14,664 nt of DNA from Candidatus Heimdallarchaeota archaeon (GTDB lineage: Archaea; Asgardarchaeota; Heimdallarchaeia; Heimdallarchaeales; Kariarchaeaceae), in the NCBI GenBank assembly GCA_015523565.1, contig WAKA01000006.1, positions 1-14,664 of the forward strand, given 5' to 3'. The notes under the pieces were generated by a model. That model made no database searches. It was not told where the DNA came from and saw only the letters and a program-made list of their open reading frames with translations. This document shows positions 2,095-13,590 of this stretch, one piece after another; the first letter of the stretch is position 1, and every line of letters begins with the position of its first letter. The position numbers and the translations under genes were made by a program.

Positions 2095-3027
2095 TTATTG
2101 TTCAACCCTTTTCAATTCATCTTCAATTTTCTGCTTGTAATCATCTAGGCTTTTTTCTAATTTATTGAAGATATCAATGCTGTCAGCATGTTTTGAGTTG
2201 TTACTGGATCTGGAGGTAATTACTTTTTTTTGGAGTAAGTCTTCCACAAGAGATATTTTCTCTTTGTTTCCAGATGAATCATAACCACTTATTTTGAATG
2301 CATCTTTTTTTATTTGAGGTAATTTTCCTTGCCTTTTTAATCGGGTAAGTTTCCTAAATAACCTTTTTATGGCACCACCTTCTAACGACTCTTCCCTATG
2401 AACTTTGAACCGTATTTCAATATCTCTTGCTGAAAATTTGTCTGAAATTATATTACTATATAGAACAAAATCCAAATCCTCCAAATGTTCTTTTAACGTA
2501 TCCAAATGGGATAGACTTAGTCTAATGTGAAACTCTACAATTCTCTCAATCTGATCAAGCTTATTTTCGGTGACATCCTGCATTAAGTAATTTATTTCTA
2601 CTTTTTTCAAATCTGGGAATATGGAATTGAAGTATGTTCTCACTATTGTCAATGAATATCCATCTGGATTATGTTCATACGCCATTACATAATCATTCGC
2701 TACTTTCTTGATTACAAAATGCGACATTTCTATTAGACCCTCATCTTCACTAAGTGTTAGATCCGAAATAGTTCCCTTTATTTTATTATATTTTGGGGGT
2801 AAATAGACACCCCTTATCCTTCCAATGACACCCTTAATATAATTGGGGGAAATATCCTTTACAATGATGCGACACAAGGTTGAATGTTGGCTATATGGTT
2901 TAACGGTTGTTTCACGGTGGGGTTTTTCTTTCAACTCCTTGAATTTTTCCCAGACTACGTTTTTTCCGTTTGGAGAAACCACTTTGATCTTTGCAAAATA
3001 AACTACTCGTTTCAAACCGTTTGACAT
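2095..3027 (-). CDS. RexA-like / DUF6731-like soluble protein (predicted RdgC-like fold)
   Basis: Pattern G.IGRIR...LP.......G.I.DL.LSEDEGLIE.SHF.........AYEHN..G.....YF, typical of DUF6731-type proteins. It is collinearly similar to lambda RexA as recalled from memory. AAGGGA lies upstream of the ATG. Confidence 0.65.
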   Translation of the reverse strand: MSNGLKRVVYFAKIKVVSPNGKNVVWEKFKELKEKPHRETTVKPYSQHSTLCRIIVKDISPNYIKGVIGRIRGVYLPPKYNKIKGTISDLTLSEDEGLIEMSHFVIKKVANDYVMAYEHNPDGYSLTIVRTYFNSIFPDLKKVEINYLMQDVTENKLDQIERIVEFHIRLSLSHLDTLKEHLEDLDFVLYSNIISDKFSARDIEIRFKVHREESLEGGAIKRLFRKLTRLKRQGKLPQIKKDAFKISGYDSSGNKEKISLVEDLLQKKVITSRSSNNSKHADSIDIFNKLEKSLDDYKQKIEDELKRVEQ

Positions 3028-3708
3028 GGAAATTCCCTTGTTGATTTATTGACCCATGTTTTTCAATTTTGTTCTGTCTTGTTCACGAATTCTGTTTATT
3101 TTGTAATTAAATAACGCGAAAAAGACTTGGTGTAATTAAGTTATTTTTCCCTTTTCCTTATGGTTCCATTTTTGAAAAGGATTGTTCGGTTTACATCTGC
3201 CTAATGTTTCGATAACAACCCTGTTTTGATATTCGTTAATTTCCTACCTTGTTATGTTTACAAATAGTGCGATTTGGTTACCGAAAAGGAAAGTGTCATT
3301 CCAAATGCCAATGTTTGTCATGTGCATTACAGTTTCATGCACCGTAATTTTTACATATAATCACGATTAAACGCAAATTATTATGCTGTTTTTCCATCTT
3401 TATTCCGATTGCCAATATCAGTTCTGAGCTTTTTTTTCTTTGACATTCAAAGAGGATGAAATGAGGATTTCTTCATGCTATGATAGGGAAATCTGGACTG
3501 TATATTGACCGTTTCGATAGAGAGATTGATTGAATGTAGTTGTCCATTTTTTGGTGGATTCGGTTATTCTTAAATAATCGTTTTCAGAAAGGCATGAAAG
3601 TGTTGTGGGAAAAATAACACACATATTGTTTTTGATATACATATACTCACATTCAGAGATATTTTACGATGTGGTTTGTGGTTCAAAAAATAGTGTAAAA
3701 AAATAGTT

Positions 3709-4680
3709 ATGATTCAATCATGGAGGGAAAAAGTTAATATATTTGTCGACAATTTAAGCTATGTGATACCCGAATTTTCCGCACAATCACGTCGGTTTAT
3801 AAAAAAAGTGAATTTCAGGATAAAAACGGGGCAATACGGGGATGCGATCGAATTGTTGGAATCCCCATTGCCTGAACTGACTGATTCAAAAGAAGTTTTG
3901 CTTACTTTGGCAAAGCTGTATATCGTTACCGATAACAATGAGGGTGCATTGAAGCTTCTGAGGCAATTGTTTTCCAATGCTCCCGATCCCGACGTTGCGG
4001 GTCTTCTTGGGCTTGTCCTATGTTCTGAGGGTTTATACGAGGAAGTCTTGGATATTGTTTCAAGTGTGGAGGGGGACAGGAATCTATTATTTTCGGAAGC
4101 CTTGGCACGCATTGCCTTGAACCGGGATTTGAAGCGTGCAGAGGAAATAATGAAGTCCTTTGGTTCTGCTGAATTCGGAGCCTTTATTTTCCAAGTTGAA
4201 ATAATGCAGGGGAAGTTTGCCCAAGCCCAAAGGACACTAAAGGCAATTGCCAATCCTGTGGTTGCAAACTACAATTCCGGAATTATTGATCTTCGGCTCA
4301 GGTTTGCCTCTAATGCCGCTCGTTCATTCAGGAAAGCAAAAGACATGCTTTCTCCACCAAAAAACATTGAAATCTTGTATAGGCGGTGGAAAATCCAAGG
4401 GTTTGAGGATCTGAGTTTAGATGAATTTAGGCAGAAGGTTGATTATTACTTGAAAATGGGGCTTGCATTGTCCCATCAGAACATTGACGAAGCGTATAGG
4501 TTGTTGGAACAGCTTCGCAATTCTCCTGCCGAGGATCATTATCTCTACCTTTGTCTTGCATCCTATGGATTGCGTATCAACAGGGACATGCGGGAGATAC
4601 AGGGATATGTGCAAGAGGCAATGAAATATTCCTCAGATATCCCTCAGGAATATCTTGAATTATTGGAGGTGGAGTCATGA
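3709..4680 (+). CDS. Tetratricopeptide-repeat (TPR-like) protein
   Basis: Repeated TPR-type helix pairs: GQYGDAIELLE, LLTLAKLYIVTDNNEGALKLLRQL, LLGLVLCSEGLYEEVLDIV, GKFAQAQRTLK, YNSGIIDLRLRFASNAARSFRKA. Its stop overlaps the next ATG (ATGA). The start may be GTG 3763 instead of ATG 3709. Confidence 0.85.
   Translation: MIQSWREKVNIFVDNLSYVIPEFSAQSRRFIKKVNFRIKTGQYGDAIELLESPLPELTDSKEVLLTLAKLYIVTDNNEGALKLLRQLFSNAPDPDVAGLLGLVLCSEGLYEEVLDIVSSVEGDRNLLFSEALARIALNRDLKRAEEIMKSFGSAEFGAFIFQVEIMQGKFAQAQRTLKAIANPVVANYNSGIIDLRLRFASNAARSFRKAKDMLSPPKNIEILYRRWKIQGFEDLSLDEFRQKVDYYLKMGLALSHQNIDEAYRLLEQLRNSPAEDHYLYLCLASYGLRINRDMREIQGYVQEAMKYSSDIPQEYLELLEVES
3726..3741 (+). promoter_or_regulatory. Archaeal BRE + TATA promoter candidate for the TPR-membrane-RING operon
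   Basis: GGAAAAAG (purine-rich BRE) immediately followed by TTAATATA. An in-frame GTG at 3763 lies 22 nt downstream, the spacing expected for a leaderless transcript. Confidence 0.5.
4665..4672 (+). promoter_or_regulatory. Ribosome-binding site GGAGGTGG for the 1951-aa gene
   Basis: Lies directly upstream of ATG 4677 in the ATGA stop/start overlap. Confidence 0.8.
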
Positions 4681-7600
4681 AGGTTTGTGAAAAATGCGGC
4701 AGTGAACAAAAGGATGAAGGTCGTTTCTGTTCGGTTTGTGGTCACAATCTCGTGACTACGTCGGCAGGGGACTTTTGGTGCGTCAACTGTACGGCAGAGG
4801 TGTCGGAAGCGGATGAGGTCTGCAAGAAATGTGGTTCTGCCGTTTTGAGGGGGAATCTCAAGATCCAGGAAAAACTGTCAAGAATTGAAGGCAATGTTGA
4901 TCTGCTTGACCAGAAATTAAACTTTCAAATTAGGAGGATTGATCGGATTGTTAAAATCTTGGAAACAGCCCATTTGGGAACTGTTCCAGATGTTGTTGAA
5001 CCTTCACCCCAAGTGGCAAAAGCTTCACAGGTTCCCGAAGAAGTTCCTGAACCTATTGTCCCCCCCGGCAAGGTTGCATATGATATACCCCCGCCTATCA
5101 AGGTTTCTGCACCTGTCAAGGTGTCTCCTCCTGTTCAAGTGAAACCGTTGCCCACGACGGAAGTGATAGGTCGGGAGCATTTGGATCCGCCTACACTTCC
5201 TGCGTTGTTCCCAAGATTTTCGGCAAAGGATTTTGTCACGGTTGATGAGATTCAGATTGAGAAGAGGAAGACAAAGGTCTTTGTTGGGGAGCAAAGTCTT
5301 GCGATGAAAGTCTTTAGTGTCTTGACCAATCAGGTTCAGCCCATTGTTGCGTCAGGATTGCTGATTGGTGCATTCATGCTTTTGGCCATTTCCCTACAGC
5401 TTTCCCCTGTCTTCCAAGGTCTTGCCTTTGGAGTCATTGGTTTATTTTCAATGTTCATGGGTCATGCAATCATTTCAGGCAGGGTTTTTGGCATTGACCT
5501 GCAAGGGTTGCGAAGTCGAGAAGTTGGGATATTCCTCGTGAATTTTGGAATGGGATTGGGACTTGGCGTTGCATGGGTTACTGGTGGCAGTGTCGTCCTT
5601 CGTCTTCTTCCATCATTGGTATATATTGGAGTTCCTGCATATCTTGGCTATCTTCATCGTTCAGACTTTACAAAAAGCTTGGTGATCATTGCCATTCTTG
5701 CGGATGCCATTGTTTTGTCGACCTCAGGTCTTCCATGGTTGATGCAAATTGGGGGTGTTCTTCCAATTGGCATTGCCCTCATTTACCTTTACCTTATTTC
5801 CAAGCAGGATGTATCTTTTGCACCAGTTCTCATATTGATGGTTGGAGGACCACTGATTGTGGTTGTTCATTCATTGGCTGTTGATGTCATGTTTCTTCCT
5901 TCACTCGGCATTGTCCTGTCATTGTTCCCAGTTGCCTATTTTCTCATGCGTGGGTTTGTTGATGTCATCAAGCCATATTACTATACACTTTATTCCTTTT
6001 TCTTCCTTTGGCCAGTTGTCGCATTTTCGATCATTCTGGCAAAATCGTCCTCTGGCTTTCCTGTAGACCCTGTCATTCTTTTTGCAGGGCTTGCGATTGC
6101 CTTTCATCTTTCAACCTCTGTAATGCATGGTAAATTTGAGGGAACTGAGATATTGAGGGATGTCTCACAAAGATTTGATCGTATTGCCAAAATTTATGTG
6201 CCTGTCTTGGGTTCATTGGTCATCCTTTATCAGCAGTTACTGTTGGCTCCTGTAGGTCAGGGGATCACTATCTTTGATTTCATAATGGGGTATGTTGTTC
6301 CCCAATTTTTGTTGGTCTTTCTCTTTGTTGTGTATGTGGTATTTGTTCATTGGTCGAAATTCTGGACTCGCAAAGGATCCATTGCCGAGAAGTGGGCAAG
6401 CATTTTGGTTTGTGATTTATCAGTTTTAGTTTCTACAATATGGTTGAACAATGAAGGTGTTCACCTTGGCAATCCTGCTGTGATTGTGATGGCTACATTC
6501 CTTTTCACAGCCATTGTACCGTTTCTAGGAGTACTTATCCATCTCTTTGCGGGTAGGTGGATTGATCGGGAAGTTTTGTTGGCAAAGACAAATGTTGTTG
6601 CCATTGCCAATGGATTTCTTTTGACGGTAGGTTTCATAGAGGGAGCCGCGGCACTTGCGGTAACCCTTGTTTCCTTGTCCATTTTCTTGGTTGGTTTGCT
6701 TCTTCCCCATCTGGAAGGGGTTCAACGGAAAAGCTACTACCAAGTTTCCTTGATCGGCAATTTCATTATAGTTGTTTTTGGACAGTTGCTTGGTAGGTAT
6801 GACAGAATAGAAATTGAGCCATTGGTTCGTCTTCTAGGTTCTTTTGGAATCAGCACGGTAGGACCTTTTGTTGTTTTTGCGATCTATGCAAGTTTTTCAG
6901 GCTTTTCCTTCTTGTTTCTCAATAAAATCATTCCGCATCGTACAACGGCAGATATTGATTTTCAGACCGTCATTACCAACCCGATGATGGCAAGGCAATA
7001 TGTCGGGCAGAAGTTCATTGAATATCAGGAATTGATATTTTCAGTCCTGCTCAACCTTTCATTCATTGTTTTCTTGGTGACAGATGGATTCATCATGGGT
7101 GAAGGGCTGTCCTATCTTCCCCCGACAGCAGTGAGTCTCGCGTTCATGCTGGTCAATGCGATTACAATCTACAACTCCCGTGGACGGCATTGGGGAACAT
7201 TGGTTCCTGCCTATGCCTCATTCCTTGCTACCATGGCTTATGTTTCGGACAGTTCCTACAGTCTTTTTGTCCAATTTGGGTTGATTTTTGTCTATTCTGT
7301 CTCATTGTATGTTTCATACTTGGATGGGGTGAAAAAGCGACCTTCATATCTTGCCCGAATATTCTGGAGAGATGCGATTGCTTGGGTCGTTTTCCTTCTG
7401 ATGCTCTTGTCTGCCAATCTTTCTGCATTTGGGACGATAGTCACCTTTGCAATACTTCTTTTGGGCTCATTGTTTGTGACTATGAGATATGGTCAATATG
7501 TCCTCTTGGGGTTGGCACCAGTTCTTTTGGCTTCTTTGATTTCCCACATGCCCTCTGCATATGATACCTCATGGGCAACAGACCTCAATTATTTCATGGC

Positions 7601-10532
7601 CATTTTGATTTTGCTTGCATTTGCATCCTTGAATTTCCTTAGAAGCCTTCAATCAAGCGAGGTAGAGGATTTCAAGATATTTGGTCTTAACCAAGACCTA
7701 TTGGATAATGTAAGGAAAGCACTTCCTGTATTTTCTGCAATCTTCCTGATCAAGCCGAAAACATTTGAGGGGTTGGCAATCAGCCATGTCTGGTTCTTCA
7801 TTCTGACGCTCTTGGTCATTGGCACCATTGAAATGACTGGATTTGACAGACGCAAACTCATTGGGGTTCTTCCATTGTTGCTCCTTAATTTCATTGTGAT
7901 GCCTGAAAGTGGGGAACTTTGGCAAACAATCCTTCTTTTGGTCACATATGGTGTCTTGGTTGGATATTCCCTGATACGTTCCTCATTTTTCCAACCTGAT
8001 GAAAATGAGGCATATCATGTCCTGCTTTCACTTCTAAGTGCCGCAATCTTCTATGCCTTTGCTTTGGATGTTCCATCCTATCCAGAGGTGTTGTTGGTTG
8101 CTTTTGCAGTGGGGTTCTTGTTGCATACCTTTGAAAGCCTGAAATCAGAAACAACATATCGTTCAGTAGCCATTGCTGTTTTCATAAGCTCCCTTTCGGT
8201 TGTTTCCATGCAAGTCGGTATTGAGGACATACCTGTGGTTTCATTGAGTTTGTTTGCCCTTTCCTATATTGCATTGGGACTGTATCTTTTTGTCAATCTA
8301 TTTTACAAACAAGATCTTCCGCCTCACTCAATGGCAACACTTGGTGCCGTATTCGCGTTCATTGGCTTGGTCAATCCCGTCTCCATTGGCACTATTGAGG
8401 CTGGGGCAATTATCTTGGCAAGTATTGGGATATTGATGATGCAATACAGGAACTTTGAACTTACATCCACTGTCTTTGTCCAATTGGGTTTTCTTGTCCT
8501 TGTCACGAATTTGCAAGGGATCGTGCAAGATACAGTGTTTGCTGGGTTTGTTGTTCAATTGGTCTATTACAGGCTTTTCAAGGACAAAGAAGGTCTTTCC
8601 ATCTTGGATGACAGGATCAAACTTTATCAATATGTCCTGTTGCCCATTCCATTAATTGCGTCAATATCACTTTCCAATCCCATTTCACAAGTTATCTATC
8701 TTTCATTGCTTGGTATTCTGAGCGTTATCAACGAGATTGTAGAAGACCATGATTCCCGTGGTCTTTCTGCCATCGGCATTGCGTTGTTCACGAGATGGAT
8801 GGCCACTTACTCGGAACCAATTGCAATATTTGGGCAGAACCTATCGGAAGGCTTGTTCATTCCCTCTTTCATTGCATTGGCAGGTGCCATCTACCTGTTC
8901 AAGACATTTGATGAATCTCTTTATTTCTTGGAGAAGCAGATCCTTGCGTATCTTGTCTTTATCTTTGTGAGTTTTGGCATTAATGAAGGCATGACCACCT
9001 TTTTCATGGGGCTTCCTTTGGCTGTCGTATCCTTTTCACTTTGGACAAAAACACAAACGGATCGTGAGGATATCATTGATGTGTCATTTCTTGCAGTTTC
9101 TCCATTATTATTCCTTTTCACGGGAGCAAATCTCGCGTTTGTCCCATTGGTGTTTTTCTTCTTGAACCTTGTGCTTACCTGTATTAAATCTGTCTTGAGA
9201 AAGACTACAGGTTCCTTGGTTCGTTTGGCATGGTTCGGTTTTGCCCATCTTGTGGAGGGGATGTTCCTTGGAGGTACCTCAGACACGTGGGAAATGGTTG
9301 CGGGGGTTGTACCGCAGATTGTAATGGATTATGCTTGGGTCACTCTTCTTGCATTTTGGCTTATTTCAATAAACATCCTTATCTCTGGTCTGACCGAACT
9401 GGATGTTGAGGGGATGGAAAATATTTCTGCATATGGTCTTGGCACCTCAACCAGCATTTTCGTAATGGCATTGGCATCCCTTATGTGGATAAACCTATCC
9501 AATATAATCAGTCTTTTCCTTCTTTTGGCAATTGGATCGTTCCTGTTGCTTATTGCCGTGAGCGTGAATGGGCGTTTCGCCCCTGTTGCAAAACGGGATT
9601 TCACAATTATGGTCGGCTCAATTCTTGCATTGCTGGTTAGCCTGCGTATTTTCAGTTTTTCATTCATAGGGGCATATGACACAAGTATCTTGGCAAATAT
9701 CTTGACAGGCAGGGAAATGATTGCCTATTTTGTTTTCCTTCCAGTCAGCCTTACCATGATCCCATTGACGCTTAGGGTTGTTGCAAATAGGGAGCTTTCA
9801 AATATCATCGTTGCATCAAATCTTGATTTATTGCTCTTTGCGACTGTCGGCTTGACATTCTTCTGGTTCCCCAATTTCGGGGATGTTGCCGCAGGGGTTG
9901 TTGTTCTGCTTTGGAGCCTATTTGTTGTTTCCGCTTCCTTGGGTCGCCGTGAGACATCAGTAATCTCTTCTGCACTGATGTTCATCATGACCTTCTTGTT
10001 TGGAAGGGACAACCAGTGGTTGCAAAAGCTTTCACTTGGTGGTGTTGCTGTGGATGGAGGGGCAGTTTCATTATTGGTAGTCAGTGCCTTGATGTTTGCC
10101 TACCTTTGGAAGCTCAATTTTGAAAATGTTTACAATACCTGCCATGACATTGTATATTCCACAACGGTTGGTACAACAGTGCTTGCCCTAATGCTGATGG
10201 CAGACTTGACAACCACAGCAGGAAGAGCCATATTCTTCAATGGGCTTGTTCTGCTCAGTGTTTCAACCATGGCCTATGCAGTGAAGTTTTCAATGAGAAA
10301 ATATGAAATTCTTGCTACAGTCATCATTTATGGAGCCTTATTGCTGGGTATTGGGGCATTGATAGTTCTTGGTGCATCAGGGACTTTGAATCTTCCACTG
10401 ACCATGCTTACACTGTTTACTGGTGGCTTGGGTTTCCTCATCAATATGGGACTTCAGAACATAGAGAAATTGATGCAGCGTGCCAAGTTCCTGCAGATGT
10501 TCGCCCCTCGGGAGGTGTCATCCAATGAATAA
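4677..10532 (+). CDS. Giant polytopic membrane protein (1951 aa): double zinc ribbon, coiled coil, Pro-rich linker, DUF2339-like membrane region
   Basis: CEKC-x10-CSVC and CVNC-x10-CKKC; heptad segment IQEKLSRIEGNVDLLDQKLNFQIRRIDRIVKIL; Pro-rich linker; then about 1700 residues of almost uninterrupted hydrophobic segments with short loops (roughly 50 or more TM helices, estimated by eye). The layout of the first helices (LSPVFQGLAFGVIG... / AYLGYLHRS) recalls DUF2339. Confidence 0.85.
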   Translation: MKVCEKCGSEQKDEGRFCSVCGHNLVTTSAGDFWCVNCTAEVSEADEVCKKCGSAVLRGNLKIQEKLSRIEGNVDLLDQKLNFQIRRIDRIVKILETAHLGTVPDVVEPSPQVAKASQVPEEVPEPIVPPGKVAYDIPPPIKVSAPVKVSPPVQVKPLPTTEVIGREHLDPPTLPALFPRFSAKDFVTVDEIQIEKRKTKVFVGEQSLAMKVFSVLTNQVQPIVASGLLIGAFMLLAISLQLSPVFQGLAFGVIGLFSMFMGHAIISGRVFGIDLQGLRSREVGIFLVNFGMGLGLGVAWVTGGSVVLRLLPSLVYIGVPAYLGYLHRSDFTKSLVIIAILADAIVLSTSGLPWLMQIGGVLPIGIALIYLYLISKQDVSFAPVLILMVGGPLIVVVHSLAVDVMFLPSLGIVLSLFPVAYFLMRGFVDVIKPYYYTLYSFFFLWPVVAFSIILAKSSSGFPVDPVILFAGLAIAFHLSTSVMHGKFEGTEILRDVSQRFDRIAKIYVPVLGSLVILYQQLLLAPVGQGITIFDFIMGYVVPQFLLVFLFVVYVVFVHWSKFWTRKGSIAEKWASILVCDLSVLVSTIWLNNEGVHLGNPAVIVMATFLFTAIVPFLGVLIHLFAGRWIDREVLLAKTNVVAIANGFLLTVGFIEGAAALAVTLVSLSIFLVGLLLPHLEGVQRKSYYQVSLIGNFIIVVFGQLLGRYDRIEIEPLVRLLGSFGISTVGPFVVFAIYASFSGFSFLFLNKIIPHRTTADIDFQTVITNPMMARQYVGQKFIEYQELIFSVLLNLSFIVFLVTDGFIMGEGLSYLPPTAVSLAFMLVNAITIYNSRGRHWGTLVPAYASFLATMAYVSDSSYSLFVQFGLIFVYSVSLYVSYLDGVKKRPSYLARIFWRDAIAWVVFLLMLLSANLSAFGTIVTFAILLLGSLFVTMRYGQYVLLGLAPVLLASLISHMPSAYDTSWATDLNYFMAILILLAFASLNFLRSLQSSEVEDFKIFGLNQDLLDNVRKALPVFSAIFLIKPKTFEGLAISHVWFFILTLLVIGTIEMTGFDRRKLIGVLPLLLLNFIVMPESGELWQTILLLVTYGVLVGYSLIRSSFFQPDENEAYHVLLSLLSAAIFYAFALDVPSYPEVLLVAFAVGFLLHTFESLKSETTYRSVAIAVFISSLSVVSMQVGIEDIPVVSLSLFALSYIALGLYLFVNLFYKQDLPPHSMATLGAVFAFIGLVNPVSIGTIEAGAIILASIGILMMQYRNFELTSTVFVQLGFLVLVTNLQGIVQDTVFAGFVVQLVYYRLFKDKEGLSILDDRIKLYQYVLLPIPLIASISLSNPISQVIYLSLLGILSVINEIVEDHDSRGLSAIGIALFTRWMATYSEPIAIFGQNLSEGLFIPSFIALAGAIYLFKTFDESLYFLEKQILAYLVFIFVSFGINEGMTTFFMGLPLAVVSFSLWTKTQTDREDIIDVSFLAVSPLLFLFTGANLAFVPLVFFFLNLVLTCIKSVLRKTTGSLVRLAWFGFAHLVEGMFLGGTSDTWEMVAGVVPQIVMDYAWVTLLAFWLISINILISGLTELDVEGMENISAYGLGTSTSIFVMALASLMWINLSNIISLFLLLAIGSFLLLIAVSVNGRFAPVAKRDFTIMVGSILALLVSLRIFSFSFIGAYDTSILANILTGREMIAYFVFLPVSLTMIPLTLRVVANRELSNIIVASNLDLLLFATVGLTFFWFPNFGDVAAGVVVLLWSLFVVSASLGRRETSVISSALMFIMTFLFGRDNQWLQKLSLGGVAVDGGAVSLLVVSALMFAYLWKLNFENVYNTCHDIVYSTTVGTTVLALMLMADLTTTAGRAIFFNGLVLLSVSTMAYAVKFSMRKYEILATVIIYGALLLGIGALIVLGASGTLNLPLTMLTLFTGGLGFLINMGLQNIEKLMQRAKFLQMFAPREVSSNE
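5097..5141 (+). repeat. Degenerate 18-nt in-frame tandem repeat (IKVSAP VKVSPP VQV)
   Basis: atcaaggtttctgcacct / gtcaaggtgtctcctcct / gttcaagtg within the Pro-rich linker. Confidence 0.6.
10511..10517 (+). promoter_or_regulatory. Ribosome-binding site GGAGGTG for the RING gene
   Basis: Lies 7 nt upstream of the in-frame ATG at 10525, supporting that start over 10480. Confidence 0.8.
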
Positions 10533-11406
10533 GCCAGTACAGAATCTTATTTCCAATGTACGGAAAGGGAAGATTGACCAATCTCGTGCACTAGAGATAT
10601 TGGTCGATGGCGGTGCTGAAGAGAAGGCGGAACTTGCACTTTTCATAGGCACATATAGAATAGGGGAACTACTTGACCCTCTTCGAGATGCCTTTGAAAT
10701 GGAGCTTGATCCAGAAATACGGGGATTATACTATTGGGCCATTTCACTCATCGCACCCGAACAAATGACCAACACTCTTGTGGAATGGATCTTGGATGAG
10801 GAAAACGAGGATGTAAAGCGTTCGATGGTTGAATCTTTTCTGACCTTTGCAGAACGCCATGACATTCCTTTGGAAACCATCAAAATCCAGAAAGAAAAAG
10901 TCATGGAACCCTTTATGTCAGTCAAGGTATCTTCACCTGTACAGATGCCTAAATCAACTACGCATGAACAACTTTACGACAATGTACTGCATATCCTCAA
11001 CAAGTTCCGACCAAAGATACCTGTCAGTTTGCAACGTATATCCTCACTCGCGGGAATTTCCATCAATGAATTGACGCAGATATTGGATGACTTAGACGGA
11101 AGGGGAATGCTCCCCGGCGAATACCTGCGACTTGAACAAGTTTTCATTAAGGACACCAAAACTGCACAGTTGGTCAAATGTACCTCTTGTGGTTCAATGG
11201 TGACCGCCTACCCATGCCCAGAATGTGGCGGCGGCAAGGTATGCGCAACCTGTCGTCTTGCCATTGACATGGAGGACAGTATATTGACCTGCCCACATTG
11301 CGATGCCCCGTCACATTCGAGACACCTGCTGGAATGGGTGAAAATCAAGGGGGTCTGTCCTTCATGCCGAAACAGCATCTCTTTGCGTGATCTTGAAGAT
11401 TCCTGA
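10525..11406 (+). CDS. HEAT-repeat + winged-helix (PCI-like) + zinc ribbon + RING-finger protein, putative E3 ubiquitin ligase (293 aa)
   Basis: HEAT-like repeats LLDPLRDAFEMELDPEIRGLYYWAISLI and LVEWILDEENEDVKRSMVESF; WH/PCI-like VSLQRISSLAGISINELTQILDDLDGRGMLPGEY; zinc ribbon CTSC..CPEC; RING C-x2-C-x12-C-x2-C-x4-H-x2-H-x3-W-x6-C-x2-C at 11242-11367. Overlaps the upstream stop by 8 nt. Confidence 0.85.
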   Translation: MNKPVQNLISNVRKGKIDQSRALEILVDGGAEEKAELALFIGTYRIGELLDPLRDAFEMELDPEIRGLYYWAISLIAPEQMTNTLVEWILDEENEDVKRSMVESFLTFAERHDIPLETIKIQKEKVMEPFMSVKVSSPVQMPKSTTHEQLYDNVLHILNKFRPKIPVSLQRISSLAGISINELTQILDDLDGRGMLPGEYLRLEQVFIKDTKTAQLVKCTSCGSMVTAYPCPECGGGKVCATCRLAIDMEDSILTCPHCDAPSHSRHLLEWVKIKGVCPSCRNSISLRDLEDS

Positions 11407-11719: not shown

Positions 11720-13012
11720 ATCAAACAAATTTTTATAGTTACAACAGGCTATGTACCGTCATATAAAAAAGTGAAATACAGGTTTGGAAATTCAACAAAG
11801 GTTAGTTGGTTTTCAAGTGAGGCTTTATTGGAATTCTGCTTTGATGATCCATCAAATGTCCATGTCATAATTGTCCACCCTGACAATGATGCCGCATATA
11901 AGGGTGTGCATGAGGGGTTCAAAACAGGGCAATATGGATTAAAGGCACCTCGTCCAAGCATTTGTGAGCTTTTCAAGAATTGTGCATCCATTCAAGTGAT
12001 AAGTGTCAAGGACGAGAAAGCCATAGGGGAAGAGGACCTTCTTTCCAGTTTCGATGATTTGGAAAGAGCAATTGAAAACATAGGCTTTCCATCGAAAATA
12101 ACCTATGACTTGACACATTCCTATCGGCATGTCGCTTTTGTAATACTTCTCCAATCCTTCTACCTGCAAACCCTGAAGAAAGGGAATGTTGAGATCCGCA
12201 ACATTTTCTATGCATTTGCCAAGCAACCATTGAAAGAAATGGATGAAGTCTCCTATCTCGATTTGGCACAATTGTTCCTTTCGATTCTGAACACACAGGT
12301 CATCAAGGATGCAGTACATGAACTGCGACCCCTTCCACTCAAGAGATATGCGGATGACTTAAAAAAATTCAAGGGGTTCTTGAATAAAACGGGGTATTCC
12401 ACGGAATACACTGATGCAGTAATCAAAAGGGTCAAGGAAATATCGTCCAAACTTTTCTATTTGCAAAATGGGTTTTTCGACTTGGATGACCTGACAACCT
12501 TGAAGAAATCCTTGAAAATAAAGAAAAAACAGCCAGAACATGCCTGGGACAGATTTCTTTCCAGATTTGTCCAAGCCCTTTTTGACGAGATTTCAATGCT
12601 TTTGAAAGGTTTGATAACCACTAATGGCTTTTATGCAAAAAGCAGGGTAATGTGCAGGTTGGGCAATCTTGTGTTTGAAAGGCAGGATGACATTGGCAAG
12701 GCGTTTGCATTCTTGCGTGAATCAATAGTCCAATACTTTGTCGAACATTTGTCATGCGAGGTAAGGGAAGCAGATCAAAAATTTAGTGAATTCATTAACC
12801 AAGAAAATATTGTTCCTGATAAATTCAAGCACATTAAAGAATTGTTTGCGGATATCGGGAATGTGAGAAATGAACTTCAGCATCTTGGGATGGGCAAACA
12901 ACCTGCCGCTTTAAGCAATTATCAAAGAAAATTCAAAAAATATTTCGAGAAGCTGGATTCTTTCTTTAAAGAAGGGAATACAGACTTCATAGACTATCTT
13001 TCTCAAATTTGA
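11720..13012 (+). CDS. csx1: CARF-HEPN ribonuclease, Csx1/TM1812 (DxTHG-motif) family
   Basis: ITYDLTHSYRH (12107-12127) is a DxTHGxR variant followed by the typical helix and I.NIFYA strand. HEPN RxxxxH motif RNELQH at 12866-12883, followed by LGM. The frame is open 5' of GTG 11771 and encodes KQIFIVTTGYVPSYKKVKYRF, the family's N-terminal strand-Gly-Y...Y motif. Confidence 0.8.
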   Translation: MKQIFIVTTGYVPSYKKVKYRFGNSTKVSWFSSEALLEFCFDDPSNVHVIIVHPDNDAAYKGVHEGFKTGQYGLKAPRPSICELFKNCASIQVISVKDEKAIGEEDLLSSFDDLERAIENIGFPSKITYDLTHSYRHVAFVILLQSFYLQTLKKGNVEIRNIFYAFAKQPLKEMDEVSYLDLAQLFLSILNTQVIKDAVHELRPLPLKRYADDLKKFKGFLNKTGYSTEYTDAVIKRVKEISSKLFYLQNGFFDLDDLTTLKKSLKIKKKQPEHAWDRFLSRFVQALFDEISMLLKGLITTNGFYAKSRVMCRLGNLVFERQDDIGKAFAFLRESIVQYFVEHLSCEVREADQKFSEFINQENIVPDKFKHIKELFADIGNVRNELQHLGMGKQPAALSNYQRKFKKYFEKLDSFFKEGNTDFIDYLSQI

Positions 13013-13590
13013 CCTTTTTTCTCGTCATAAACTGCCTTTCCTATCATGTGGGCAATCCTTAATGCTTCAGGCATGTTCCCGACAGCAATAGTGCATTTGA
13101 TGATTTGTGTGGCAGTTTCAAAATCAATGCCTGTTGCTTGGATAAAGATTCCTTCCTTCATGATTTTTGGCATTGGATGTTTCTGGATGACATTCCATCT
13201 TTCTTCACCATCTGGAAGGTTTTTCAAGGCTTCCTTGATTTTCTCGAAATCAGGTTTCCTTTTCATCACTGCAATAAATGGCACCTTTAATATCGTATAT
13301 ACTCTTTGCGGGTCAATCACACCAAATCCTCCAATGGTAACACCCTGATGGATGATTGCTTTCAGGTTCTGCCTATGCCCGCTTTTTTCAACCATCTCAA
13401 TTATCCTTGTAGTGGGATCTGGATCATCCTTCAAAATTGTGGTTTTTGTAATCCCCTCAACATAATGGTGTCCTCTCATGACGACTCCGAAGACATCCAC
13501 CCCATTCCATTCTGGACTAAAAAGTTGGAACCCCCCGTCATCAATTCCCATGACGGGTATTTTCTCTTTCACAGGTTTGTCATTCAACAA
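13003..13590 (-). CDS. DUF99 (UPF0215) family protein, endonuclease V-like fold
   Basis: Motifs VMGIDDG, GVVMRG, DPT..I, GVTIGGFGVID, P.IAVMKRKPD...IKEALK and G.MPEALRIAHMIG are the recognisable signature of archaeal DUF99. TTG start. Confidence 0.92.
   Translation of the reverse strand: MLNDKPVKEKIPVMGIDDGGFQLFSPEWNGVDVFGVVMRGHHYVEGITKTTILKDDPDPTTRIIEMVEKSGHRQNLKAIIHQGVTIGGFGVIDPQRVYTILKVPFIAVMKRKPDFEKIKEALKNLPDGEERWNVIQKHPMPKIMKEGIFIQATGIDFETATQIIKCTIAVGNMPEALRIAHMIGKAVYDEKKGQI

Follow-up and report, generated by a model that had tools for sequence, protein, structure and literature searches.

Overlapping genes for a TPR protein, a giant membrane protein and a RING protein in Heimdall-type Asgard archaea: a candidate membrane-docked ubiquitin-ligase module

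Several archaeal ubiquitin cascades have been described, among them the reconstituted srfp cascade of Caldiarchaeum subterraneum (PMC5654768), a further reconstituted archaeal cascade (PMC6043591) and a cascade of ubiquitin-activating (E1), ubiquitin-conjugating (E2) and RING enzymes in Asgard archaea (bioRxiv 10.1101/2023.07.25.550441). Here, we describe three overlapping genes of a Candidatus Heimdallarchaeota archaeon that encode a tetratricopeptide repeat (TPR) protein (gene 1), a giant membrane protein (gene 2, the giant) and a protein consisting of HEAT-like repeats, a winged helix (WH), a zinc ribbon and a RING finger (gene 3, the RING protein). The window that was analyzed is one entire contig of 14,664 bp (WAKA01000006.1; C6 in our numbering), part of an archaeal metagenome-assembled genome of 3.57 Mb that is ~90% complete. 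The trio is a real, lineage-restricted module of a small group of Heimdall-type Asgard archaea. On the strength of its gene structure, coupling signals, domains and linkage, and of the ubiquitin cascade carried by the host, we propose, with confidence that is evenly divided, that it constitutes a membrane-docked RING ubiquitin-ligase module. Full-text literature searches returned the reconstituted archaeal cascades and nothing on the trio operon or the family of the giant, in agreement with an earlier note, made from the sequence of this DNA alone, which knew of no characterized prokaryotic system of such composition.

Among known systems, the closest archaeal counterpart of the gene 3 finger is that of the srfp ubiquitin ligase (E3) of such ubiquitin operons. 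Both are of the RING-H2 type, and both have an extra Cys that creates a second C-x2-C knuckle, a Trp, and an Arg/Lys after the last Cys. This knuckle has been described as the 'C3B' variant in the active C. subterraneum enzyme (PMC5654768), and in gene 3 it likewise supplies ligand 4. Unlike srfp, the gene 3 RING lies outside a ubiquitin operon and ends a HEAT-WH-zinc ribbon protein that is coupled to a TPR protein and a giant, and it has Thr where srfp has an essential Ile. Membrane-tethered RING proteins of the host and of other Asgard genomes have the same RING variant fused to a membrane protein, whereas in the trio the RING resides on a protein of its own, translationally coupled, which also carries a HEAT-WH module and has a TPR protein as partner.

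In eukaryotes, the nearest systems by composition are the membrane ligases Hrd1-Hrd3/SEL1L, Doa10/MARCH6 and Dsc/Tul1, with which the trio shares a parts list only, namely a polytopic membrane component, a RING and a helical-repeat partner. The membrane bodies of Hrd1, Doa10 and Dsc have no sequence relation to the giant, and no fold relation was seen with the model of its C-terminal half (pLDDT 67, >400 aa). The RING of the ligases of endoplasmic-reticulum-associated degradation (ERAD) is within the membrane-spanning polypeptide, whereas in the trio it is on a separate soluble protein of 293 aa. The repeats of Hrd3/SEL1L are lumenal, as opposed to the TPR protein of the trio, which is predicted to be cytosolic, and eukaryotic membrane ligases have 8-14 transmembrane (TM) helices compared with ~50 in the giant. 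The RINGs of synoviolin and AMFR are among the weaker matches of the gene 3 RING profile (1e-3 to 1e-2). The earlier note had proposed a split version of the Hrd1-Hrd3, Doa10 or Dsc type, and this proposal was not upheld: Pfam, NCBIfam, remote-sequence and membrane-fold searches (the last two with its C-terminal half) returned no match for the membrane body, which together with the soluble RING and the cytosolic repeat adaptor led us to reject an identification as an ERAD-type ligase. Any likeness of the trio to ERAD machines would be one of function only, and is speculation. The roles in membrane-protein quality control, membrane sensing or antiviral tagging that the note had suggested are guesses.

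Layout of the trio and its conservation

The three genes are co-oriented, and their stop and start codons overlap, by 4 nt between genes 1 and 2 (ATGA) and by 8 nt between genes 2 and 3 (ATGAATAA, 10525-10532), exactly as the earlier note had reported. Its further observation of GGAGGTG before genes 2 and 3 was also correct: these are the only two occurrences on either strand of the window, located 5 and 7 nt before the respective starts. The number of sites is by itself unremarkable (two or more in 64 of 200 shuffles), whereas their placement exceeds chance. Shine-Dalgarno (SD)-like sites also precede the orthologous starts in three related genomes (G001, G002 and G009). In the window, the first SD site falls within the codons for Leu-Glu-Val, a conserved C-terminal stretch of the TPR protein, and the second within the tail-coding part of the giant gene. 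The frame of gene 3 is open already from a GTG at 10480. All three genes have a GC content of 43-46%, compared with 38.6% for the genome and 31-39% for flanks and spacers, which places the block in the top 2.5% of the genome's 6-kb windows. No ubiquitin, E1 or E2 gene was found within the 14.7-kb window, as had been stated before; the genome carries them elsewhere.

Seven other loci carry pairs of these genes or the full trio. The TPR-giant-RING order and the overlapping junctions are shared by G001 and G002, and G003 (same genus; 93% complete, 10 contigs) encodes a 299-aa TPR-like protein, a 2133-aa giant and a 335-aa RING protein at C7:442600-451000. In G008, the TPR gene and the giant's N-terminus are on one contig, and the giant's C-terminus and the RING protein are on another. 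G009 has TPR and giant genes, the NCBI contig L043 has giant and RING protein genes, and G007 has giant fragments only, with a lone TPR-like match containing an internal stop on a separate contig. No flanking genes are common to any of the loci compared, so the block has been kept while its surroundings changed. The gene-neighborhood comparison suggested in the earlier note thus bears out the linkage of the trio, across several genera and with unrelated flanks where these could be compared.

With the window's giant as query, 7 of the 12 host-family genomes (host included) gave a match. Among 29 genomes of three sister families there was none, save one zinc-ribbon-only match; the genomes lacking a match are only 68-86% complete, and real absence does not follow. 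Identities across orthologues are 49/28/18% for the TPR protein, 55/33/24% for the giant and 60/48/34% for the RING protein, compared with 64-65% for E1; the values against G002 are 28%, 33% and 48%, with E1 at 65%. Judged from these identities, the three proteins diverge together and quickly.

The three proteins and the flanking genes

The giant begins with two zinc ribbons, whose cysteines (C4, C7, C18, C21, C35, C38, C49 and C52) are invariant across seven orthologues, followed by a coiled-coil-like segment and a Pro-rich linker to ~aa 180. Its membrane body is a nearly continuous series of ~50-55 hydrophobic helices, a number that to our knowledge is among the highest known. Loop charges alternate, with odd loops of 4-13 aa that lack Lys/Arg and even loops that are longer and bear Lys/Arg. 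This alternation implies that the N-terminus and all sizeable loops of the giant are cytoplasmic, with almost nothing exposed outside. Conserved cytosolic motifs are located near aa 782 (EYQE) and aa 835 (RGRHW), and conservation is highest in the last ~150 residues and in a short motif of the C-terminal tail, which is probably cytosolic as well. Distant members of the family have the tail motif, too, including P0022, at whose locus no gene overlaps the tail, and it is therefore a protein-level feature.

Searches for relatives of the giant point to an orphan family. The membrane body has no Pfam match (E up to 1) and no NCBIfam match (E up to 0.1). A profile of the C-terminal 1,052 residues found 11 proteins among 1.84 billion representatives, all of them family members, and a word-based search of 5.8 billion clusters with the giant found three. 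Public entries are named 'zinc ribbon domain-containing protein' or 'hypothetical protein [Candidatus Heimdallarchaeota archaeon]'. Neither self-BLAST nor block-wise hhalign (all probabilities <3%) revealed internal repeats. A DUF2339 (PF10101)-like repeat protein was considered and rejected, as there was no match at E up to 1 and there were no internal repeats; in the whole host genome DUF2339 was not found at E up to 10, in a search that did give matches in control genomes. Lys depletion of the giant was likewise discarded as evidence of a ligase scaffold, because its K/R ratio, though below the genome average, is accounted for by the higher GC content.

The AlphaFold2 (AF2) model of giant aa 900-1951 is all-helical, with a mean predicted local distance difference test (pLDDT) score of 67. 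A known transporter or channel fold was considered for the C-terminal half and found no match with this model, Foldseek against the PDB returning nothing at E<=1e-3. The top 50 VIA-align matches of the model, which has this pLDDT and rests on a shallow alignment, include no natural membrane fold; they consist of alpha-solenoids of soluble proteins and of designed repeat proteins, one of which is the best (Z 16.9). Solenoid-like packing is thus a lead that may be a modeling default.

The TPR protein exceeds the curated Pfam cut-offs for TPR_19 (52 bits against 25; E=8.7e-14) and TPR_14 (32.1 against 23.5). It has no signal peptide and no TM or hydrophobic segment, and should therefore be cytosolic. 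Homologous upstream genes overlap the giant's start in G001, G002, G003, G008, G009 and at the metagenome locus L042, whose distant orthologue still scores 47 bits with TPR_2.

The RING protein has 293 aa and no TM segments, and its AF2 model has a mean pLDDT of 77. The HEAT, WH and RING domains that the earlier note had read in gene 3 were recovered, as HEAT-like repeats, a winged helix and, behind a zinc ribbon, a RING-H2-type finger like those of solved E3s. The N-terminal solenoid has a weak Pfam HEAT_2 match (E=0.004) and is separated from the WH by a low-confidence linker of ~25 residues (~aa 121-144). With VIA-align, the WH is closest to that of a COP9 signalosome (CSN) subunit (Z 10.3; root-mean-square deviation (rmsd) 1.6 over 62 aa) and of a proteasome lid subunit (Z 9.5), and other WHs follow at Z 8-9. 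Whole-chain Foldseek matches to CSN and lid subunits are weak (E 4e-3 or worse), in a search that is dominated by HEAT and WH and reached the RING in a single match; there is no Pfam PCI match, though a 695-aa paralogue has one. The ligand pattern of the RING is invariant across seven gene 3 sequences, with RING-H2-like spacing, and HMMER aligns the ligands onto those of RNF126, EL5 and RNF24. W271 and P279 are invariant, and the 'linchpin' position 282 is Arg/Lys in most sequences (here R282) and His in one orthologue. Against the PDB, a profile of the seven sequences matched RNF126 (7.2e-6), EL5 (1.3e-5), RNF24, Arkadia/RNF165 and RNF38, down to synoviolin (1.2e-3). Coordinates of all features are collected in Table 1.

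Table 1. Positions of the genes, junctions and protein features of the trio within the 14,664-bp window
Feature	Position	Strand	Basis or remark
Gene 1, TPR protein	3709-4680	+	ORF of 323 aa (P0001)
Junction 1: GGAGGTG 4665-4671, then ATGA stop/start overlap 4677-4680	4665-4680	+	
Gene 2, giant membrane protein	4677-10532	+	ORF of 1951 aa
Two zinc ribbons, giant aa 1-56	4677-4844	+	Pfam Zn_Ribbon_1 and DZR, just below cut-offs; alignment
Coiled-coil-like heptad segment, giant aa ~60-97	4854-4967	+	inferred from translation and alignment
Membrane body, giant aa 222-1926	5340-10454	+	hydropathy, loop-charge alternation
C-terminal tail, giant aa 1927-1951	10455-10529	+	conserved F-x-x-x-F-x-P-x-E-like motif
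Junction 2: GGAGGTG 10511-10517, gene 3 ATG 10525, giant's TAA stop 10530-10532	10511-10532	+	
Gene 3, HEAT-WH-zinc ribbon-RING protein	10525-11406	+	293 aa counted from ATG
HEAT-like alpha-solenoid, gene 3 aa 1-120	10525-10884	+	AF2 pLDDT ~85-94; VIA-align Z 10-11 to HEAT/alphaRep/adaptin repeats
Winged helix, gene 3 aa 145-210	10957-11154	+	closest to WH of PCI-domain subunits
Zinc ribbon, gene 3 C219, C222, C231, C234	11179-11226	+	alignments
RING-H2 variant, gene 3: C240-x2-C243-x12-C256-x2-C259-x4-H264-x2-H267-x10-C278-P-x-C281	11242-11370	+	

Upstream of the trio, an AT-rich spacer of 680 bp (3028-3708; 32% GC) separates the TPR gene from a divergent gene (2095-3027, - strand) and probably holds the promoters of both. 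Directly downstream, a 413-aa open reading frame (ORF; 11771-13012, + strand) encodes a Csx1/Csm6-type CARF+HEPN protein (PADLOC 2e-22; NCBIfam cas_TM1812 5e-7), a neighbor that is not kept beside the trio in the other loci compared. It is convergent with a gene for endonuclease dU (PF01949, E=1e-47; 13003-13590, - strand), the two overlapping by 10 nt at their ends. A partial ORF at the contig end (2-334, - strand) has weak Ufd2P_core (E=0.002) and ARM-like matches and is too short, and the matches too weak, for interpretation. The window contains no tRNA and no Rfam matches, and an origin of the flanks from a mobile element or virus was rejected, there being no PHROGs match. At L042, the region upstream of the TPR gene (L042:56-2949) encodes an Arf/Ras-type small GTPase, an ACT-domain protein and a 308-aa leucine-rich-repeat protein, the last of these directly before the TPR gene.

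The ubiquitin system of the host and a predicted complex

The earlier note had called for a search of the host genome for ubiquitin, E1, E2 and JAB genes, and all of them are present. The E2 genes, of the UQ_con family, number three (on C204, C104 and C32), as do the E1-like genes of the ThiF type (on C104, C97 and C95), and ubiquitin-family genes number two to three (on C104 and C97). One operon on contig C104 (G000:C104:1125-5576, L039) combines two ubiquitin-like genes, an E1, a UQ_con E2, a JAB protease and a 388-aa RING protein, whose RING is 44% identical to that of gene 3 over the core. The E1 of this operon is of the ThiF type with a C-terminal part resembling ubiquitin-like domains, and the 388-aa protein has ~2 hydrophobic segments and a C-terminal RING. 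E2 genes were found in 5 of 5 trio-bearing relatives tested. In G003, the best match to the C104-type E1 has 41% identity, and no orthologue of the 174-aa operon E2 was found.

By tblastn, the host genome contains at least 11 copies of the gene 3 RING variant, and in several cases the protein that bears the RING has predicted TM helices. Of the ten copies besides gene 3, eight are on contigs C203, C46, C44, C160, C99, C210, C164 and C1, and the other two are on C8 and C104. The protein at C203:28993-30270 has ~8 TM helices and a C-terminal RING, and the C44 copy is on a 1001-aa protein. The C8 copy belongs to the 695-aa paralogue mentioned above (G000:C8:18944-21028; L038:2442-4529, - strand), which has several winged helices (TrmB, PCI and DDRGK-like matches), ends in a zinc ribbon and RING, and looks UFL1-like; nearly all genomes of the order have an orthologue of ~690 aa. 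This is the family to which gene 3 comes closest in its WH, zinc ribbon and RING.

A complex of the TPR protein, the N-terminal 110 and C-terminal 37 residues of the giant, and the RING protein as the scored partner was predicted with an interface score (ipSAE) of 0.57 (runs 0.63, 0.55 and 0.57), contact agreement of at least 22% and partner pLDDT of at least 73. All three controls gave 0.00, including one with a replacement of the TPR chain alone, a pattern that points to a contact between the TPR and RING proteins. The prediction weakly supports binding of the RING protein to the TPR protein, and the score says nothing on docking to the giant.

A proposed membrane-docked ligase module and its rivals

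In the mechanism that we propose, the three genes would encode subunits of a single membrane-docked complex. The giant would be a nearly all membrane-embedded platform, with a cytosolic face made up of the N-terminal double zinc ribbon, the coiled coil, the Lys/Arg-bearing loops and the conserved C-terminal tail; an N-in topology in which the long loops are all cytosolic fits a docking platform that faces the cytosol. The soluble TPR and HEAT-WH-zinc ribbon-RING proteins would bind one another and dock on this face, where the RING would recruit one of the host's ubiquitin-charged E2 enzymes. Ubiquitin would then go onto membrane-proximal targets, which may be other membrane proteins or the platform itself. 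We infer the physical assembly (weakly supported in silico), E2 recruitment, ligase activity, substrates and quality-control role that this mechanism contains.

A number of observations weigh against it. The complex prediction amounts to 'weak support' by the method's own calibration, in which 58 of 80 solved complexes passed, as did 2 of 110 mismatched pairs, with only 7 of the 80, plus both passing mismatches, doing so at 0.60 or below. G003 has the trio and lacks a C104-type E1/E2 pair, so the trio cannot depend on that pair. The most divergent full-length giant, P0022 (L042, a metagenome contig of 736 kb), has an overlapping TPR gene and no adjacent RING gene; a CBS-domain gene follows behind the giant after a 300-nt gap. 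As this locus keeps TPR and giant, these two look like the core, to which the RING subunit looks like a frequent, possibly dispensable addition. The gene 3 RING is under the Pfam cut-offs for both Prok-RING_1 (19.4 against 29.1 bits) and zf-RING_2 (15.7 against 27.3). All trio orthologues have Thr (T242) rather than the usual Ile/Val at the E2-contact position that follows the first Cys, and at the equivalent position of the archaeal srfp E3, I30Q abolished activity; that enzyme was also impaired by W58A and R69A (PMC5654768). The zinc ribbon and RING cassette of gene 3 resembles the C-terminal zinc domains of subunits of GATOR2 and intraflagellar transport complex A (IFT-A). Lastly, the module is restricted to a handful of genomes from a single family, it is fast-evolving, and it may turn out not to be a ligase at all.

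The Thr at the E2-contact position and the likeness to GATOR2/IFT-A zinc domains make a membrane complex with a non-catalytic RING a serious rival, which we nevertheless consider unlikely. In such a complex, the zinc ribbon and RING would be an assembly or dimerization module (compare the BARD1/BMI1-type partner RINGs, GATOR2 and IFT-A), and the giant would act by scaffolding, membrane shaping or organizing a membrane domain without ubiquitin transfer. In IFT-A and GATOR2, the C-terminal zinc domains act mainly in assembly, holding subunits together. Gene 3 aa 213-293 superposes on that of IFT-A WDR19 (Z 9.0, rmsd 2.2, 78 aa, 24% identity), and the gene 3 RING profile also matches the zinc ribbon and RING ends of GATOR2 WDR24/WDR59 (8e-5 to 2e-4), covering both modules (query positions 13-76). 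Like gene 3, these subunits place an alpha-solenoid before the zinc ribbon and RING; unlike them, gene 3 lacks a beta-propeller, has a short solenoid (~120 aa) and has a PCI-type WH inserted. HEAT repeats with a PCI-type WH are an assembly architecture, and TPR and giant occur without an adjacent RING gene. The Thr is, moreover, specific to the trio: among the ten paralogous RINGs of the host genome, nine have Ile/Val at this position and one has Lys. Thr is, however, a mild change that introduces no charge, and the Trp, Pro and Arg/Lys 'linchpin' (His in one orthologue) that are important for activation of the E2~ubiquitin conjugate have been kept. The top sequence matches are active RING-H2 E3s, and the host's RING and E2 repertoire is large and apparently active.

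A self-regulating unit, in which the RING/TPR pair mainly ubiquitylates the giant and thereby controls its abundance or removal (for example through Cdc48/proteasome or ESCRT) while the giant is the effector, seems to us rather improbable. The strict one-to-one operon coupling would suit it, as would the Lys residues in the giant's cytosolic loops and N-terminal region and the lack of a substrate-recognition domain besides TPR and HEAT; a very large polytopic protein would also need its own turnover. A protein made in stoichiometric, translationally coupled fashion with its own degrader would be unusual, however, and this explanation overlaps with the membrane-docked ligase module to the point of being inseparable from it by sequence. 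A conflict or defense module, for instance one that guards membranes against viruses or mobile elements, would account for both the rapid evolution and the patchy distribution, and agrees with a divergence far above that of E1, variable flanks, atypical GC and the Csx1/Csm6 gene directly downstream. We consider it improbable: none of the three trio proteins has a PADLOC or PHROGs match, the Csx1 neighbor is not retained in the other loci compared, and the trio lacks a nuclease, protease or NTPase effector.

Within the reading of the trio as a membrane-docked ligase module, we also raise a structural conjecture that is frankly a long shot. The giant might be a ribbon of ~50 TM helices packed side by side, a 'transmembrane solenoid', which as a coiled-coil oligomer would fence or shape a membrane patch that the TPR and RING subunits make into a ubiquitin-tagging site. 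Ubiquitin-dependent sorting or quality control of membrane proteins would then have had a forerunner in prokaryotes, one that arose independently of the ERAD ligases.

Asgard ubiquitin cascades with RING E3s are known, and their substrates and membrane links are largely unexplored. The 1951-aa giant has no detectable relatives outside its family, no repeats and no catalytic signature, and its structure alone would be informative. Heimdall-type hosts represent the archaeal group closest to eukaryotes. If the trio is indeed a membrane-docked RING ubiquitin-ligase module, the operon would be a concrete candidate for membrane-associated ubiquitylation before eukaryotes and would bear on the origin of ubiquitin-dependent sorting and membrane-protein quality control.

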